DNA from: an uncultured Anaerolineales bacterium
Lineage (GTDB): Bacteria > Chloroflexota > Anaerolineae > B4-G1 > SLSP01
Direction of reading: 5' to 3'
Assembly: GCA_964530185.1 (NCBI GenBank)
Contig: CAZHBB010000003.1
Coordinates: 13,563 to 77,562 of the forward strand
DNA length: 64,000 nucleotides
Part shown: one piece after another, positions 7,200-64,000 of the stretch
How the letters are laid out: every line of letters begins with the position of its first letter
How positions within the stretch are numbered: position 1 is the stretch's first letter
Translations under genes and position numbers: made by a program
Notes under the pieces: generated by a model
Told to the model about the DNA's origin: nothing
What the model saw: the letters and a program-made list of their open reading frames with translations, nothing else
The model's database searches: none

Positions 7200-8513
7200 A
7201 TGGCAGCGCGCCAATCCCCAGTCACCCTATCCCCTCATGCCCTCCCTGGTCCCAGTAACACCCTGCGCGAGACGCTGCCCAACGGTCTCACCGTGCTGAT
7301 CCGCGAGAACCCTACGAGTCCGAGCGTGGTCATCAGCGGTTACGTTCTGGCAGGAGCTGAGGATGAACCCAGGGATAAGTCCGGCCTGGCGAGCTTCACT
7401 GCCGATGTCATGGAGCGCGGCACCCGTCGACGTCCCTTCTCCGTGCTCTACGAGGAGATCGAATCCATTGGAGCGTCTTTCGGTGTCACAGGAAGCACCC
7501 ACCTGACGCTCTTCGGAGCCAAAGGACTTAGCGAACATCTCCCTCTCCTGCTCGATATCCTGGCCGACGTGCTCCAACACCCGGCGTTTGAGACGCAGGA
7601 GGTCGAGAAGGTACGCGAGGAGATCCTGATTACCCTGCAAGAACGCGCCAACGATACCCGCCAGACCACGCGGCTTCGCCTCAGGCAATTGGCATACCCA
7701 CCAGAGCATCCGTACCATTGGAGTCTATTAGGAGATCCCAAGACCGTGCGCGCACTTTCACGGGAGGATCTACTCGCATTTCACTCTACTTACATTGCCC
7801 CACAAGGGGGCGTGCTAGTCATCGTTGGTGACGTACAACCACAGATTGCACTGGAGGCAGTCCACAGAGCGTTCGGAGCGTGGCAAAAGACCCGACCGCC
7901 TCGCCAGATGCCTCCTCCCGTTCCCAACATCCGCCAGCGGCGCCGAGACCACGTGACGCTGGCTGATAAATCCCAGATCAGCTTTCGCTTGGGATGGATT
8001 GGCCCCAGCCGCTATCACCCCGACTACCTATCTTGTCACGTCGCCAACACCATTCTGGGCGTGTTCGGCATGTATGGCCGTCTGGGAAAGCGCCTCAGAG
8101 AACAACATGGCCTCGCTTATTATGTCTCCAGCCATGTCAACAGCAGCCCTTACCCTGGCCTTTGGTCGATCTCCGCGGGCTTGGATCCGGACGCGGTCCA
8201 ACGGGCGAGGGCGATCATCCTCCAAGAGGTACAGGAACTCCAGGATCGACCTGTCAGCCTACAGGAGTTAGAGGACGTCCAGGCCTATTTAGTGGGCGGG
8301 CTTCCTCTGGCACTAGAGACCAATGAGGGTGTTGCCAGTGGCCTGGTAGGCATCGAGCGTTACGGGTTGGGCCTGGATTATTTCCACCGGTACAGTGATA
8401 TGATTTACGCAATCAGCCCCCAGGACGTGCAGCGTGTGGCTCGGTCATGGCTCGACAGCGATCACTACATCCTGGTAACTGCTGGACCTCGATTACCCTG
8501 TTTTACGGAGTGA
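7200..8513 (+). CDS. M16 family peptidase-like protein (probable non-catalytic partner subunit)
   Basis: It is a paralogue of the upstream M16 gene with the same domain order but no HxxEH motif. The RBS is AAAGGAGAG. This is the usual two-gene M16 arrangement. Confidence 0.75.
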   Translation: MAARQSPVTLSPHALPGPSNTLRETLPNGLTVLIRENPTSPSVVISGYVLAGAEDEPRDKSGLASFTADVMERGTRRRPFSVLYEEIESIGASFGVTGSTHLTLFGAKGLSEHLPLLLDILADVLQHPAFETQEVEKVREEILITLQERANDTRQTTRLRLRQLAYPPEHPYHWSLLGDPKTVRALSREDLLAFHSTYIAPQGGVLVIVGDVQPQIALEAVHRAFGAWQKTRPPRQMPPPVPNIRQRRRDHVTLADKSQISFRLGWIGPSRYHPDYLSCHVANTILGVFGMYGRLGKRLREQHGLAYYVSSHVNSSPYPGLWSISAGLDPDAVQRARAIILQEVQELQDRPVSLQELEDVQAYLVGGLPLALETNEGVASGLVGIERYGLGLDYFHRYSDMIYAISPQDVQRVARSWLDSDHYILVTAGPRLPCFTE

Positions 8514-13226: not shown

Positions 13227-13643
13227 TCAGAACCACCGACTAAACAGGATCCGAACGAGCCAACTGACAGCCCGCACCAAGAGGAAGAAAGCGCCGAACA
13301 AGAAGGCCATACCTAACAACGCTGCTAAGATGTTGAGACCACGCGCATCTTTCCGGGTTAATCGCTTTCCAGCCACGGCTAAAGCATCAGCCCCCCCGAT
13401 CAGACCTCCCACGACCCCACCCCAAAGGACATATTGCATCAAACTTCCACTGATCAGCCCTGCCCCACGCGCGAGCGAGGCCGCCACCAATGCTAGCAGC
13501 CCACCGACAACAGCCCCAAACATCTGGCGGCCCCAACTGTCCGTAGCCTGGGTGGCTGTCTCGTGCCCATCGGTGGCGCTCTCATGTTGCTCTTCATTAA
13601 CTGGCTCAGGTTCTGCCATGTGACCCTCAATTCTGTGTGACAT
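13227..13643 (-). CDS. Small membrane protein with glycine-zipper-like transmembrane segments (hypothetical)
   Basis: 138 aa: an acidic N-terminus followed by three predicted TM helices rich in GxxxG. The alternative start at 13619 has a weak RBS. Confidence 0.4.
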   Translation of the reverse strand: MSHRIEGHMAEPEPVNEEQHESATDGHETATQATDSWGRQMFGAVVGGLLALVAASLARGAGLISGSLMQYVLWGGVVGGLIGGADALAVAGKRLTRKDARGLNILAALLGMAFLFGAFFLLVRAVSWLVRILFSRWF

Positions 13644-29980: not shown

Positions 29981-30799
29981 TTAGTATTTCCTCACAATGG
30001 GGCGATAGGCCGCAGGCTGCCGGGCCAATACGATCTGAGACTCTTCACGCCGATGACGGACATCGTCCAGGTCAAGGCGTACAATCACATAGCCTTCCTC
30101 CGGCTCCTCCAGTGCCGCCAACACTTCACCACCAGGCGAGAGAACCGCACTCTGACCAGCAAATAAATAGGACGGCTCCTCTCCAATGCGATTAGCAGCA
30201 GCGATAAAGATGTCGTTCTCGTAGGCCCGAGCCACCAACAAAGTCCGCCAGATGTCAGCGTCCTCCATTTGCCAGGCTGCTGGCAACAGAATGATCTCAG
30301 CACCGCTCAGCATCAGGCTGCGGGCAACCTCAGGAAACGCCAAGTCCCATCCGATCATCACGCCGATGATCCCGACTTCAGTCTCGAAGGGCTTGATCTG
30401 GTAGCCTGGACGGAAGACCAGACGTTCCTCAGCCGGCAGGTGCACCTTGCGATATTCACCTGCGACCTCCCCGTCTGGGCCGATCAAGACAGCCCCATTA
30501 TACAGCACCGTTTCCACACTCTCCTTGACCGCCATGCCCACGAGCACATAGACCCCAAACTCGCTGGCGTGCTGTCCCAGGATATTTGTCACGGCACCTG
30601 GCACCCGTTGGGCCATCTGTGCGAAACGCGCTCCACCCTCATAGCCAGTCACTGCAAGCTCAGGAAACACGATGATGTCCACCGGCTGGTCAGTGGCAAT
30701 ACGAGTAATCATGTCGGCCATCTTGCCGACGTTATCTTCCATCTTGGCAAGCTGAGGCGCCATTTGGACGACAGCAACATTGAGCTCACGCATACCCAC
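29981..30799 (-). CDS. Carbon-nitrogen hydrolase (nitrilase superfamily) homologue lacking the catalytic cysteine
   Basis: The conserved catalytic Glu (FPELAVTGY) and Lys (YRKVHLP) are present, but the nucleophile position reads MIGWDLAFPE where the family has G.GICYD.RFPE. I checked the codon on the DNA: it is GGA. Confidence 0.7.
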   Translation of the reverse strand: MGMRELNVAVVQMAPQLAKMEDNVGKMADMITRIATDQPVDIIVFPELAVTGYEGGARFAQMAQRVPGAVTNILGQHASEFGVYVLVGMAVKESVETVLYNGAVLIGPDGEVAGEYRKVHLPAEERLVFRPGYQIKPFETEVGIIGVMIGWDLAFPEVARSLMLSGAEIILLPAAWQMEDADIWRTLLVARAYENDIFIAAANRIGEEPSYLFAGQSAVLSPGGEVLAALEEPEEGYVIVRLDLDDVRHRREESQIVLARQPAAYRPIVRKY

Positions 30800-59446: not shown

Positions 59447-60436
59447 ATGAATCAGCCCAGGACACCCATAGCTGCACGTATCCCGGAGGCAAAGACACCA
59501 ACAGAGGAACTAAGGGCTATCCTCTCTCGCCTCGAGGCGCAGATCGGCAAGCTGGGAGTCACTCACCTTGATCATCCGGAGGAGATTCTGTTGCTCCTGG
59601 ATCAGGCGCGGGCACGCTTCACGGACCTCCGAGAGCGCGATGCGCAACTCATCCCAGAGCATACGCGCATGACCTCGATCGAGGAGCAACTCCACGGCAA
59701 GCGCCGACAGCTTCTGCGGGCCCTCGGCGGTGCCAGAACCCTCCAGGAACTCCGCGAGGCCCATCAACCACCCGAGGAGCACTGGTGGTGGTTCATTGAT
59801 GTTGCCCTGGCTCATGAACGACGTACCCGCCTGCGTCAAACAGCTCGGGGTGCCATCGTTGGCATCCTGATCTTGGGTGTCCTCACCGCAGCCTACCAGC
59901 TCTTCCTGGCACCTGACAAAGCCACACAGCAGCGGATGACCCATGAATTAGCCGCTGAGGAAGCACTGGGCGCGCAGGACTTCACAACAGCTCTTGAAGA
60001 GGTTGATATGGCCCTGACGCTGGCCCCGGGAGACAGCGACCTCCTCACGCTCAAAGGTGTTGCCCTGGCCCTGTCGGGGCAGGAGGTCGAGAGCGAAGGT
60101 GTCTTTGAGCAGGCCATACAGGCGGCAGGCGACCTGGAGATGTTTCACATCGCGCGGGCACGGTATTTCCTCATAGCCCACCGGCCCGAGCTCGCGTTGG
60201 AGGATGCCCGGTTGGCTATCAAGGCCAACCCGAAATCAGCAATGGCCTACTTCCAGATGGGAAATGCCTACGCAGAGCTGGGAAGGGTCCCCGAGGCCGC
60301 TGAAAGCTATGAGAGAGCCGCGGCACTGGCGCAGGAAGCCGGCGAGACTCAGCTAGAGGCCATGGCCCGTGTTCAGCTAGCTTATCTCTCGATGGTCCCC
60401 AGCTTACCCACAGGCACATCATCCCCCACTCCATAG
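59447..60436 (+). CDS. TPR-repeat protein with one transmembrane segment (hypothetical)
   Basis: One hydrophobic helix (GAIVGILILGVLTAAYQLFL) is followed by TPR-like repeats. Confidence 0.45.
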   Translation: MNQPRTPIAARIPEAKTPTEELRAILSRLEAQIGKLGVTHLDHPEEILLLLDQARARFTDLRERDAQLIPEHTRMTSIEEQLHGKRRQLLRALGGARTLQELREAHQPPEEHWWWFIDVALAHERRTRLRQTARGAIVGILILGVLTAAYQLFLAPDKATQQRMTHELAAEEALGAQDFTTALEEVDMALTLAPGDSDLLTLKGVALALSGQEVESEGVFEQAIQAAGDLEMFHIARARYFLIAHRPELALEDARLAIKANPKSAMAYFQMGNAYAELGRVPEAAESYERAAALAQEAGETQLEAMARVQLAYLSMVPSLPTGTSSPTP

Positions 60437-60641
60437 ACACTTGGGACCGTCCCAGGTGATCTAGTATCGTCTATCGTCGAGGCCGTTGGACGTTTCTCTT
60501 CCTCTCTCCAACAACACACCACAGCTCATCAGACAGCCGCCAACCGGCAGGCCGAGGCAGAGTCCATGTCACACCCGCCGCGAACTGCGGATAATGGCTT
60601 CATCGTCAGGGGGCCTGGGCAGGCCGAGCGTCCCTCCCCGC

Positions 60642-61412
60642 TTACCGCGCCATCCACCCCCCGTCCACCACCACGATCTCCCCGTGTACGTAACGTGAGG
60701 CCTCAGAGGCCAGAAAGACCGCCACACCCTTGAAATCCTCAGGCTTCCCCCAGTATCCAGCCGGGATCCGCTCCAGAATTTGCCGGCTACGGACTGGGTC
60801 ATGGCGCAGTGCCTCGGTGAGCTCGGTCGCAATATAGCCAGGAGCAATGGCGTTGACATTCACACCCTTGGCTGCCCATTCGTTGGCCAACGCCTTGGTC
60901 AACTGGCCGATCCCCCCCTTGCTGGCAGCATAGCCGGGCACCGTGATACCACCCTGGAAGGTAAGTAGCGAAGCAATGAATATGATCTTGCCCTGACCTC
61001 GCTTCACCATCTCGCGCCCGAACTCCCGTGCGAGGATGAACGGCGCATCCAGGTTGACGCTAGTGACGAGGTCCCAATCCTCATCGGAATGCTCGATGAC
61101 CGGCGCACGCCGAATCGTGCCCGCATTGTTGACCAGAATGTCGATCACGGGCACGTCCTGTTTGACCTGCCGGATGAAGGCATACAGTGCCTCCCGGTCA
61201 GCGAAATCACACTGGTAAGCGTAGAAGCGACGCCCTAACGCCGTAACCTGCTCCCCCACCTGGCTACCCGAGAGCGCCAAAGAGCGGCTCACTCCGACGA
61301 TATCTGCACCAGCCTCCGCCAGGCCAACCGCGATAGCCGCGCCAATACCCTGACGACACCCTGTCACCAATGCGATCTTGCCGTCGAGTCTGAAGGTCTC
61401 CAGAATCCCCAT
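60642..61412 (-). CDS. SDR family oxidoreductase (KduD/FabG-like)
   Basis: The TGxxxGIG Rossmann motif (LVTGCRQGIGAAIA), NNAG, and the catalytic S...YxxxK pattern are present in a 256-aa protein. Confidence 0.75.
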   Translation of the reverse strand: MGILETFRLDGKIALVTGCRQGIGAAIAVGLAEAGADIVGVSRSLALSGSQVGEQVTALGRRFYAYQCDFADREALYAFIRQVKQDVPVIDILVNNAGTIRRAPVIEHSDEDWDLVTSVNLDAPFILAREFGREMVKRGQGKIIFIASLLTFQGGITVPGYAASKGGIGQLTKALANEWAAKGVNVNAIAPGYIATELTEALRHDPVRSRQILERIPAGYWGKPEDFKGVAVFLASEASRYVHGEIVVVDGGWMAR

Positions 61413-61415
61413 GAC

Positions 61416-62447
61416 TCACCTCTCCTGTGCTCCAACGTCAATCAAGATCTTCATCACATCACCACCAGATTCCAACAGGCGAAACCCCTCAGCGATTCTG
61501 TCCAGAGGATAGACCGCCGAGATTAGCTGATCAAGCGGGAGATCCTCGCTGGCGGTCAGTTCAATTGCGCGCTCGAAGTCCTGGCGCTCATAGACCCGCG
61601 CACCACGCATCCTGAGCTCCCGCCACACGATTCGCATCAGATCCACCGGCGGAGGGTCTGATGCCAACCCCACGATAACTATGCGCCCACGGGTACGCGG
61701 CAACTGAGTCATGACCGCAGCGCCCGCTTTGGAGGCTGACACCTCGAACACCACATCCGCCCCCGCGCTCCCTGTACGCTCCTCAACCAGGGTTACGAGG
61801 TCCACCTCGAGGGGGTTGACCGCTTCCAAGCCCAGCGTGTGGGCAATCGCGACGCGACTCGGGTTAATCTCCGACACCAATACTCGGGCGCCATCGTGCT
61901 GCGCCACCAGCCCGATAAGGGTGCCGATAGGGCCACCCCCGATCACGACGACTGACTCACCTGCTGCGACCTCCCCGAGCCGGACGTCGTGGCATGCCAC
62001 GGCCAGCGGCTCGATCAAAGCAGCCCGCTTCAAGGAGATCTCTTCAGGCAACGGAAGGACAGCGTACTCTGGCACGACCCAGGCGCTTTGAAAAGCCCCC
62101 GGCGTGTCGATCCCTATGAACTTGAGGTTCATACAGATATGGCTGTGGCCTGCACGGCATGCAGGGCAGGTCCCGCATGGCTTCAAAGGCATAACCGTCA
62201 CCCTCTGCCCTACCCAGACACTCTCCACTCCTTCACCAACGGCACTGACCACGCCTGATGCCTCATGCCCCATAATCTGAGAGGGAGCAACACGCCAATC
62301 CATCCTGCCATGGTAGATGTGCAGGTCGGTCCCACAGATGCCCGCATAAGCCACCTGTATCTGCACCTCGCCTGGACCTGGCGGTTGCACCTCTGCCTTC
62401 CCCACCCGAATCACTCTGTTGCGTTCGTAGTATGCTGCTCTTGCCAT
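61416..62447 (-). CDS. Zinc-dependent medium-chain alcohol/polyol dehydrogenase (threonine/sorbitol dehydrogenase-like)
   Basis: GHEASGVV, a structural zinc Cys cluster (CGTCPACRAGHSHIC), and a GxGxxG Rossmann motif. Confidence 0.75.
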   Translation of the reverse strand: MARAAYYERNRVIRVGKAEVQPPGPGEVQIQVAYAGICGTDLHIYHGRMDWRVAPSQIMGHEASGVVSAVGEGVESVWVGQRVTVMPLKPCGTCPACRAGHSHICMNLKFIGIDTPGAFQSAWVVPEYAVLPLPEEISLKRAALIEPLAVACHDVRLGEVAAGESVVVIGGGPIGTLIGLVAQHDGARVLVSEINPSRVAIAHTLGLEAVNPLEVDLVTLVEERTGSAGADVVFEVSASKAGAAVMTQLPRTRGRIVIVGLASDPPPVDLMRIVWRELRMRGARVYERQDFERAIELTASEDLPLDQLISAVYPLDRIAEGFRLLESGGDVMKILIDVGAQER

Positions 62448-62750
62448 GGTCCTCGCTCCTTGTTCGTGGACGGAGTGCCTGCCACCAAGTCAAACAACCT
62501 CCGAGATATCGAAGACGTTGGGGTCTTCTGCCGAGACCAACCGCGTCCCGATCGACTCCCTGAAGGTTTGCCGCGACGACTTGGGATGGGGCCAGTCTAC
62601 AGCCGTTGCCCATCACCGTCAATAGAAAGTGGCAGACTCCAACCGTGGTTCATCGAAGGAGGATCAGAGGTCAGCGCGCCGCCGACTGCACCCTACTCGT
62701 TGCAGCGTCGGCCGAGGACGCTCATGCCAAGGCCTCTATCACAATGGAAC

Positions 62751-62793
62751 TTGACAATACCAAGAAGGGATGTTATAGTATTACATGTAATAC
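62751..62793 (+). promoter_or_regulatory. Consensus promoter (TTGACA-17-TATAGT) followed by the perfect 16-bp palindrome GTATTACATGTAATAC (candidate RHH operator)
   Basis: The palindrome overlaps the -10/+1 region, immediately upstream of the RBS of the first RHH gene. Confidence 0.5.
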
Positions 62794-62818
62794 ACTTACG
62801 GAAGGAGCTGTTACCATT

Positions 62819-63295
62819 ATGCCGGAGCACGAAGAGGTCCAGGTAGAGATCGAAGAGTCTGAGGAGGGCACAACCGCCCAGGTGGAGGTGGAGGTCACCC
62901 CTGCTGGCGACGCTGCGGATCAGTCAGAGGATAAGTCTGTGCGGGGTCGCACCACCAAGCAACTGAGGGAGGCCTTACGGCAAGCGGAGTCCTTCGCACA
63001 GGCGCTCAGTGAGGCGCTCCAGGGTCGGGGCAACGTCGTCATGGTCAGGGTCAACGATGAGGCATTGGTCCACCTTGATATGTTGGTTGAGGCGGAGATC
63101 ACCAAGAGCCGTTCCGAGAGCGCAGCTTTCCTGATCAGCGAAGGCATCAAAGCGAACCAGGCTCTGTTCGATAAGATCCGAGCTATCACTGAACAGATCA
63201 TGGAACTGCGCGAACAGCTTCGACGGGAAGTCGCCCTGACATCCGCCGAGGACGAGGCTGACGACGAAGAAAATACCCCATCACCGGTCGACTGA
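62819..63295 (+). CDS. Arc/MetJ-type ribbon-helix-helix (RHH) domain protein with an acidic N-terminal region (hypothetical regulator)
   Basis: The internal ATG is preceded by AAGGAG and sits downstream of a consensus promoter. The central VMVRVNDEALVHLDMLVEAEITKSRSESAAFLISEGIKA block resembles the Arc-type RHH (beta strand-helix-helix with a conserved RS). The ORF-track start at 62606 is unsupported. Confidence 0.45.
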   Translation: MPEHEEVQVEIEESEEGTTAQVEVEVTPAGDAADQSEDKSVRGRTTKQLREALRQAESFAQALSEALQGRGNVVMVRVNDEALVHLDMLVEAEITKSRSESAAFLISEGIKANQALFDKIRAITEQIMELREQLRREVALTSAEDEADDEENTPSPVD

Positions 63296-63327
63296 GAAAT
63301 ATGAGACTGCTCTGAGGAGAGTGAGGC

Positions 63328-63693
63328 ATGGTAGCGAAAGAGACACCACCAGAGGTTGTGGTCAACGATGGAAGAACCCACAAGGCCATTGAAATCGCGG
63401 CCGATATGGCCGACCGAGGGCTGAACGTGATCAAAGGGTTGGGTAACATGCTGCTGGACGCAGCCGAGGATGCATCGGGCTTGATGCTCCTGAGGGTGGA
63501 CCGCGATCTGCGATCAGCTCTTGATGTCTTAGTTGAGACAGGGGCCGCCGACAACCGTCGCGTGGCCGCGCGAGCACTGCTCAAGAAGGGGATAGAGGCT
63601 GAAAGCACCCTGTTCGAACGTATCCATCGGACCCACGCACAGATCGCCGATCTCAGACGGCAGATGCGAGATCTGGTCAAAGTTCAGGCCTGA
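63328..63693 (+). CDS. RHH-domain protein, paralogue of the upstream gene (hypothetical regulator)
   Basis: GAGGAG RBS. The block LMLLRVDRDLRSALDVLVETGAADNRRVAARALLKKGIEA aligns with the RHH block of the upstream protein, followed by a similar C-terminal helix. Confidence 0.45.
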   Translation: MVAKETPPEVVVNDGRTHKAIEIAADMADRGLNVIKGLGNMLLDAAEDASGLMLLRVDRDLRSALDVLVETGAADNRRVAARALLKKGIEAESTLFERIHRTHAQIADLRRQMRDLVKVQA

Positions 63694-63723
63694 CAGCAAT
63701 CACTGCTGGCAATACTCATACAG

Positions 63724-63770
63724 CCACACTGCACATAGACTCAATGTCTACGTGCAGTGTGGTGTTTTTC
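63724..63770 (+). terminator. Intrinsic terminator downstream of the second RHH gene
   Basis: A 17-bp stem (CCACACTGCACATAGAC / GTCTACGTGCAGTGTGG, one mismatch) is followed by TGTTTTTC. Confidence 0.55.
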
Positions 63771-63953
63771 CCAGGTGCCCCAAGAGAACCACGATGTAGC
63801 CATATTCTTTAAGCGACTATCCCTTAAATTTGACAAAACTAAAGATGTATGGGTAATTATTGAGGGAATTACCCAAAACCATTTCGTGCATAGACGAGCT
63901 GCGCGGCGCATGCGGGAACCGCCAGGAGACCTTCTAGTCGCGAAGGAGCCACC

Positions 63954-64000
63954 ATGTCCCCCAAAAAAGACCGTCCCACTGGATTCACTGCTTTCATCGT
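63954..64000 (+). CDS. 5' end of an unidentified CDS (continues beyond the window)
   Basis: A GAAGGAG RBS is followed by ATG (MSPKKDRPTGFTAFI...). Only 15 codons are visible. Confidence 0.2.
   Translation, partial: MSPKKDRPTGFTAFI

Follow-up and report, generated by a model that had tools for sequence, protein, structure and literature searches.

The contig CAZHBB010000003.1 of an uncultured Anaerolineales bacterium (assembly GCA_964530185.1) harbours two adjacent small genes, here called A and B, close to the 3′ end of the 64,000-nucleotide stretch analysed (positions 13,563 to 77,562 of the forward strand, hereafter the window). A and B probably encode paralogous ribbon-helix-helix (RHH) proteins of Anaerolineae-type Chloroflexota, which repress their own operon and constitute a chromosomal, non-mobile regulator. 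Judging from the sequence, the pair most likely shuts off its own very strong promoter at a palindromic operator. About 75 species-level genomes have kept the promoter and the 12-bp operator, neither of which turns up elsewhere in the vicinity.

Sludge, sediments, and hot springs contain abundant Anaerolineae, yet hardly any of their transcription factors has been studied, and no papers came up when the literature was searched for Anaerolineae plus ribbon-helix-helix. In this poorly studied lineage, the locus combines a regulator with an operator, and its comparative signal is unusually clean; regulatory studies could start from it, or it could be used as a tightly self-limiting expression cassette. 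On the reading given above, A-B is an uncharacterised member of a conventional class, the negatively autoregulated RHH repressors. Beyond the definition of its operator and the link to AbmR of Mycobacterium tuberculosis described below, nothing about the locus departs from an ordinary autoregulated RHH repressor.

Promoter and probable operator of the A-B operon

Genes A and B form a compact, bicistronic unit (Table 1) and share one promoter, which is near-consensus and intrinsically strong. The sequence-only reading of this DNA had pointed out the arrangement TTGACA-17-TATAGT before gene A and a perfect 16-bp palindrome over the transcription start, and both are present. The 17-nt spacer contains TG at 62771-62772, and the palindrome, GTATTACATGTAATAC, has its first bases in the −10 hexamer, so that the expected transcription start falls within it. 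Its length alone is not beyond chance in 64 kb, where perfect 16-bp palindromes arise with a mean of 1.3 and at least one is found in 71% of first-order Markov simulations; the palindrome is meaningful because of its position and its conservation.

A perfect TTGACA (TTGACT in three loci), a spacer of 16-17 nt, and TAnnnT were found upstream of gene A in 74 out of 82 loci. The remaining ones have close promoter variants or are truncated. Seventy-nine related loci include enough sequence upstream of A for the operator to be compared. The conserved core of the palindrome, ATTACATGTAAT, is kept directly 3′ of the −10 hexamer in 76 of them; its loss from orthologous loci, which would have refuted the earlier proposal of an autoregulatory operator at this site, was thus not observed, and the proposal is supported. 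Exact TTACNNGTAA was detected at most 200 nt upstream of A, directly after the promoter, in 70 of these loci, and with one mismatch in six more. Outside the A promoters, TTACNNGTAA has no occurrence in the remaining 468 kb of the seventy-nine loci, and exact ATTACNNGTAAT occurs once in the window, at the A promoter. The locus thus shows the arrangement characteristic of autoregulated RHH repressors, a palindromic operator that overlaps its own promoter and is conserved together with the gene. A one-mismatch operator-like site in the window (AATACGAGTAAT, 30698-30709) was discarded; it lies inside a minus-strand open reading frame (ORF; 29981-30799), without promoter context and within chance expectation.

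Across 74 loci, the operator consensus ATTACRYGTAAK occupies positions +1 to +12 past the end of the −10 hexamer. It is followed by three weakly conserved positions (nnA), then by ATTAC from +16, and often by RnRTAA. A second palindrome is full in many relatives and, where full, is centred 15 bp downstream of the first. Among the A-B loci, the half-site TTAC at +17 was found in 45 out of 57, and GTAA at +23 in 18 out of 57; a full or half second site showed no clear link to the presence of B.

The register of the operator array relative to the promoter has shifted among lineages. In a subgroup of loci (L008/L023, L018, L025, L031, and similar), the −10 hexamer itself lies within a half-site (aTTACAAT), and the complete palindrome is found at +17 instead of +2, with extra GTAAT copies between.

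Paralogy, distribution and predicted fold of proteins A and B

The proposed paralogy of the two genes was confirmed. A and B share 30% identity over 100 amino acids in BLASTP (E = 4e-10), and the comparison of the A-family and B-family profiles gave a probability of 99.7% (E = 4.9e-27, 97 columns). Unusual N-termini had been claimed for both proteins, which holds for A, with an acidic, low-complexity N-terminus containing 14 D/E among the first 40 residues, but not for B, whose N-terminus is ordinary. The coiled-coil-like C-terminal helices described earlier agree with the profile matches of the last helix to coiled coils of the PDB; in A, this helix is followed by an acidic tail.

The search with gene A in a collection of 5.8 billion proteins revealed 1744 homologues at E <= 1e-3. 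None of them carries a Pfam domain or a meaningful name, and those that are named derive from metagenome-assembled genomes (MAGs) of Anaerolineae or Chloroflexota, many on long chromosomal contigs. Homologues from many different MAGs share 58-80% identity in the core of A, ALQGRGNVVMVRVNDEALxHLDMLVEAEITKSRSESAAFLIxEGIKANxALFxKIxAITxQIAELREQLR, as expected for vertical inheritance; 37 of its positions are invariant. The invariant residues of the putative strand are N72, V73, V74, M75, R77, N79, and D80; they are as invariant as the operator, which they match in this respect.

A scan with one genome per species gave 132 species-level hits, from which 80 loci were kept, and B was located in these by local iterative searches (jackhmmer). 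In context look-ups, a gene of 121-125 amino acids lies directly 3′ of A in distant relatives with unrelated neighbourhoods, and the B paralogue is immediately downstream of A on the same strand in 61 out of 81 non-redundant loci. In the other 20, B is absent within 3 kb on either side. Therefore, the A-B tandem is an old duplication maintained across the lineage and not a strain-specific acquisition. B is much more diverged than A, with a mean column identity of 35% and one invariant residue only. A word-indexed search with B alone found two clusters, which suggested a lineage-specific duplicate; this was a sensitivity artefact, overturned by the context look-ups and jackhmmer. With a joint A+B profile, exhaustive HMMER searching retrieved 755 cluster representatives (50% identity) at E <= 1e-3. 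The A/B family is unannotated and confined to Anaerolineae-type Chloroflexota.

Two loci (L055 and L066) come from MAGs labelled Spirochaetes or Spirochaetota, for which mis-binning or lateral transfer is possible. One MAG (JAXGUU01, AnMBR.bin427) possesses two separate A-B loci, L016 and L039.

The proposal that A and B are RHH DNA-binding proteins has moderate, not conclusive, support from sequence and structure prediction. The AlphaFold model of B, built from the joint A+B alignment, is extended at aa 50-58 and continues with helices at aa 59-70 and 77-91 and a long helix at aa 93-120, with predicted local distance difference test (pLDDT) values of 90-96 over aa 61-110. This corresponds to the strand-helix-helix topology of the RHH superfamily plus a C-terminal helix. 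Foldseek placed the ParD RHH domain and apo-NikR as the best matches of the model, with non-significant E-values, as is to be expected of a domain this short (about 45 residues); the structures nearest to the B model belong to RHH antitoxins that carry a C-terminal helix (ParD, MazE, KacA).

Profile matches point in the same direction. Pfam RHH_1 matches 56 of 148 diverse family representatives (best E = 3.2e-5) and RHH_8 matches 6, and weak NikR matches are also present among family members. The individual RHH alignments coincide with the strand and helix 1. For B, the best hint from curated profiles is the RHH segment of NikR (E = 0.04). In A, the family PHROG 4738, 'transcriptional repressor', matches aa 71-113 weakly (E = 0.0016), and the weak AbmR and PHROG repressor matches span aa 71-133. 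Since the A and B families are homologous over 97 columns, the predicted topology of B should transfer to A.

Several results weigh against this assignment and against self-repression by an RHH pair. Scanned directly against Pfam and NCBIfam, A and B of the window gave no match above threshold. In the AlphaFold model of A, which is all-helical, a single long helix runs across the putative β-strand; this model is the chief argument against the RHH fold. The search of PDB sequence profiles with the A family gave no hits, and the one with the 148 representatives returned only coiled coils (geminin, designed bundles) via the C-terminal helix. The centre-to-centre spacing of 15 bp between the operator sites is unlike the usual one-turn spacing in operators of RHH dimers of dimers. 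Finally, no regulon was found, with no second operator copy in the 64-kb window or the 468 kb of related loci.

The A model is a monomer obtained from a shallow alignment (58 close homologues), with a confidence of about 65 at the putative strand, and was left out of fold searching. Its V-V-M-V-R-V stretch is rich in β-branched residues and as such a poor helix former. For this reason, and because a monomer was modelled of what is expected to be an obligate dimer, we regard the strand segment of this model as unreliable.

The same results could be read to mean that A and B are helical coiled-coil proteins that do not bind DNA, with a structural, scaffolding or RNA-associated role, and that ATTACRYGTAAT is bound by another regulator controlling them. 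We consider this quite unlikely. It agrees with the all-helical A model, with the exclusive PDB matches to coiled coils, and with the C-terminal domain of tyrosyl-tRNA synthetase (TyrRS; SYY_C-terminal) as the most frequent Pfam near-match (62 out of 148 representatives), an ambiguity also known from the Phyre2 results for AbmR. AbmR, moreover, binds RNA and forms large complexes (bioRxiv 10.1101/2021.09.03.458936). Nevertheless, the RHH_1, RHH_8, and NikR matches recur exactly over the strand-helix-helix segment. The poor helix propensity of V-V-M-V-R-V speaks against a continuous helix as well. Furthermore, the operator accompanies gene A through unrelated neighbourhoods and occurs nowhere else in the 468 kb, which is the pattern of self-recognition expected if the product of A recognises the operator.

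For the autorepressor, we infer DNA binding and repression by A and B, their stoichiometry, and the formation of heteromers. Dimers would insert a two-stranded antiparallel β-ribbon, the groove-reading element of the obligate, intertwined dimers of the RHH superfamily, into the major groove of the operator, which starts right after the −10 hexamer, and would also bind the second full or half site 15 bp downstream. The bound dimers would block RNA polymerase at the start site, resulting in negative autoregulation. A, with its invariant β-strand, would be the sequence-specific reader of the operator. B is more likely a modulator than an operator reader because of its variable strand, its strong divergence, and its absence from 20 out of 81 loci; it may form mixed oligomers with A via the C-terminal helices or place a second dimer on the adjacent site. 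Speculatively, the acidic tail of A may be autoinhibitory.

Relation to AbmR and to RHH proteins

The closest characterised relative of A and B is AbmR (Rv1265) of M. tuberculosis, in its C-terminal DNA-binding region, and they appear to share its DNA-binding module. AbmR is an experimentally shown autorepressor that oligomerises and requires its C-terminal residues 130-189 for DNA binding; it also activates mcr11 and binds ATP (PMC6282994). The only Phyre2 leads reported for AbmR were the C-terminal domain of TyrRS and CopG-like RHH proteins (PMC6282994), the same ambiguous pair of weak matches obtained here. The similarity to AbmR is detectable over the strand-helix-helix and the following helix. 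Thirty-four out of 55 family members match the C-terminal positions 101-163 (of 167) of the NCBIfam AbmR model NF058631, with a best E of 1.6e-4, and the intermediate protein P0239 matches the same positions with E = 3e-8; the best family representative reaches 33.5 bits. In addition, one B homologue has a weak precomputed match to Pfam Mb1296_C, Mb1296 being AbmR's orthologue in BCG.

A and B are not orthologues of AbmR, since A scores 18.9 bits against an equivalog cut-off of 160 and matches in the C-terminal region only (aa 73-133). AbmR is a single actinobacterial protein of 190 amino acids that binds ATP, which enhances its DNA binding, and adjoins the small RNA (sRNA) gene mcr11, whereas A and B are two short paralogous genes of Chloroflexota. 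No nucleotide-binding motif was detected in the Pfam and NCBIfam scans of A and B, and the Rfam scan of the region revealed no sRNA gene next to the pair. The link suggests that the 'novel' DNA-binding domain of AbmR is an RHH plus coiled-coil module, and helps to interpret the published R146/R148 mutants.

The pair may have a broader role, as an activator, a global regulator or a nucleoid-associated protein, for which autoregulation would be one activity among others, and which may sense a ligand such as ATP and control distant genes. This proposal extends the autorepressor explanation and is compatible with self-repression; as an account of the primary function we give it a low probability. 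It draws on the very high conservation of A among homologues from many MAGs, on the perfect consensus −35 in 74 of 82 loci, which indicates a high expression capacity, and on the distant homology to AbmR with its several activities. Any targets would be remote, as the neighbouring genes vary. Against it stand the lack of a second operator copy in the window and in the related loci, the confinement of the AbmR similarity to the C-terminal region, and the lack of a detected nucleotide-binding motif.

A more far-reaching proposal is that A and B form a lineage-wide, highly expressed, heteromeric regulator, the Chloroflexota counterpart of AbmR. It would be global or nucleoid-associated, possibly responsive to nucleotides or RNA, with the acidic tail and the coiled-coil helices controlling higher-order assembly. 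We regard this as tentative and on balance unlikely. If true, it would define a new RHH subfamily common to Actinobacteria and Chloroflexota, and provide a fold assignment for AbmR, which has no solved structure.

Returning to the autorepressor, similar to CopG of pMV158, Arc and Mnt of P22, and the N-terminal domain of NikR, A and B possess a predicted strand-helix-helix core in which an S/N-R-x-E motif caps the N-terminus of helix 2, and their palindromic operator overlaps the promoter of their own operon. The sub-threshold RHH_1 and NikR profile matches and the fold neighbours also agree with the CopG/Arc/MetJ superfamily. A and B differ from these proteins in a further conserved helix that precedes the strand and in a long, coiled-coil-like one that follows the core, and A carries acidic tails. 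Another difference is the operator unit, TTAC-N2-GTAA, whose sites are spaced by 15 bp, and the genes are chromosomal and lineage-wide, not borne on a plasmid or phage.

Tandem or duplicated RHH units are known from TraY, with two RHH repeats in one chain, and from the haloarchaeal tandem RHH genes cdrL-cdrS. By analogy only, two RHH units side by side could act together in A-B too. The CdrS model matched two family members weakly. Unlike in these systems, no ftsZ or transfer genes are linked to A-B, and the sequence relationship is limited to the generic RHH pattern.

Genomic neighbourhood and features of the locus

The A-B unit is a vertically inherited chromosomal regulator and not part of a mobile element. 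It is found on chromosomal contigs of up to 5.4 Mb, in varying neighbourhoods with unrelated housekeeping genes. In the window, a Zn-dependent alcohol-dehydrogenase-like gene and a short-chain dehydrogenase gene lie upstream of the pair on the minus strand (Pfam labels taken from the syntenic locus L004). The near-identical metagenomic contig L001 reaches 360 nt past the window; on this contig, the gene that begins at 63955 is seen to code for a membrane protein. In L004, which is 88% identical, the downstream gene encodes a 472-aa transporter of the major facilitator superfamily (MFS), followed by genes for AIM24, cysteinyl-tRNA synthetase, DegV, and sugar metabolism. The sequence-only reading had pointed to the DNA past the 3′ edge as the place to look for toxin, ParA, or phage genes, and the genes just named are what is encoded there.

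Synteny with L004 includes the genes for a tetratricopeptide repeat protein, the short-chain dehydrogenase, and the Zn-dependent alcohol dehydrogenase upstream (window 59447-62447), and those for the MFS transporter, AIM24, and cysteinyl-tRNA synthetase downstream. In L007, synteny is partial, with extra genes inserted on both sides of the pair. L004 and L007 thus show a pair that keeps its position although the genes around it differ.

A toxin-antitoxin module with a ParD/CopG-type antitoxin, a ParG-like partition system, or a repressor module of a prophage or integrated element, as suggested by the sequence-only reading, is highly improbable. What that reading proposed at its core, an RHH pair with an autoregulatory operator, is retained here, and the mobile-element or addiction-module setting is not. 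Such an origin would fit the structural proximity of the B model to RHH antitoxins with a C-terminal helix, the promoter-overlapping operator, which is typical of toxin-antitoxin and partition operons, and the weak match of A to a phage repressor family (PHROG 4738). However, the gene that follows A encodes its paralogue, neither a toxin nor an ATPase. Type II toxin-antitoxin systems have an adjacent, co-transcribed toxin, whereas the only partner here is a paralogous RHH protein; RHH antitoxins such as ParD/PrpA, MazE4, KacA, and the CopG-family antitoxin 5ceg differ from A-B in this respect, and in their mobile-element association. Partition of the ParFG/ParAB type needs a neighbouring ParA/ParF Walker ATPase and a location on a plasmid or mobile element, but no adjacent ATPase was found in any locus. 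A prophage repressor pair would be located in a prophage or have phage relatives, and neither was observed for A-B.

The searches of the surroundings agree with this. No ParA, toxin, integrase, or phage genes are near the pair in the window, and no ParA, toxin, or phage gene adjoins it in the loci inspected, where the neighbours are the genes named above or unrelated housekeeping genes. No relatives were found among 50,697 phage records, 72,556 plasmids, and 2.9 million viral contigs (IMG/VR). PADLOC gave no match, no tRNA genes lie within 9 kb of the pair, and the Rfam scan of the region was empty. The 58-80% identity of the A core across many MAGs is, as stated, that of a vertically inherited gene. 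At 0.56-0.60, the pair has the GC content of its surroundings. A lower-GC stretch after the terminator, indicated earlier, does exist (0.49-0.51), but it corresponds to nothing more than the intergenic DNA that carries the promoter for the MFS transporter gene (ATG at 63955), and the composition of the pair is native.

Table 1. Features of the A-B operon, in positions of the window
Feature	Positions	Strand	Remarks
Sigma-70-type promoter	62751-62779	+	11 of 12 consensus positions
−35 hexamer TTGACA	62751-62756	+	
−10 hexamer TATAGT	62774-62779	+	
Candidate operator site 1, perfect 16-bp palindrome GTATTACATGTAATAC	62778-62793	.	Read from the sequence
Conserved operator core ATTACATGTAAT	62780-62791		
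Candidate operator site 2, left half only, CTTAC	62795-62799	+	Conserved +16 to +20 position
Shine-Dalgarno sequence GGAAGGAG of gene A	62800-62807	+	Read from the sequence; end of AGGAG 11 nt before ATG
Gene A, 158 aa	62819-63295	+	ORF; acidic disordered N-terminus aa 1-43, helix aa 44-69
Predicted RHH core of A, aa 72-110	63032-63148		
Gene B, 121 aa	63328-63693	+	Diverged paralogue of A; starts 32 nt 3′ of the A stop codon; C-terminal helix aa 93-120
Predicted RHH core of B, aa 51-91	63478-63600		
Intrinsic terminator of the A-B operon	63720-63770	+	Hairpin with 17-bp arms, then T-run
Terminator hairpin arms	63724-63740 and 63746-63762		Followed by TGTTTTT

The start of gene A at 62819 is the real one, because the promoter is conserved. 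A TTG-initiated ORF of 229 amino acids (window 62606-63295) spans the promoter and operator into gene A, and some public gene calls contain over-long A starts, such as P0003 (216 aa) and the partial call of 236 amino acids in L002.

The strong terminator that had been noted after the pair was supported by an RNA fold of −35.5 kcal/mol (z = −5.0), with no equally stable structure among 200 shuffles. L004, the closest genome relative, contains a 13-nt tandem duplication, with gtcgagtctacgt present twice (8405-8450), in the hairpin loop and right arm of the terminator after B.

A further TTGACA resembling a promoter element and the inverted repeat TGGGTAATT-N8-AATTACCCA lie upstream of the MFS transporter gene (window 63830-63874); the arms of the repeat carry GTAAT/ATTAC, similar to the half-sites of the A operator. 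We considered this repeat (63849-63874) as a second operator; it is probably not a conserved one, since it is degraded in L004 and absent in L007.

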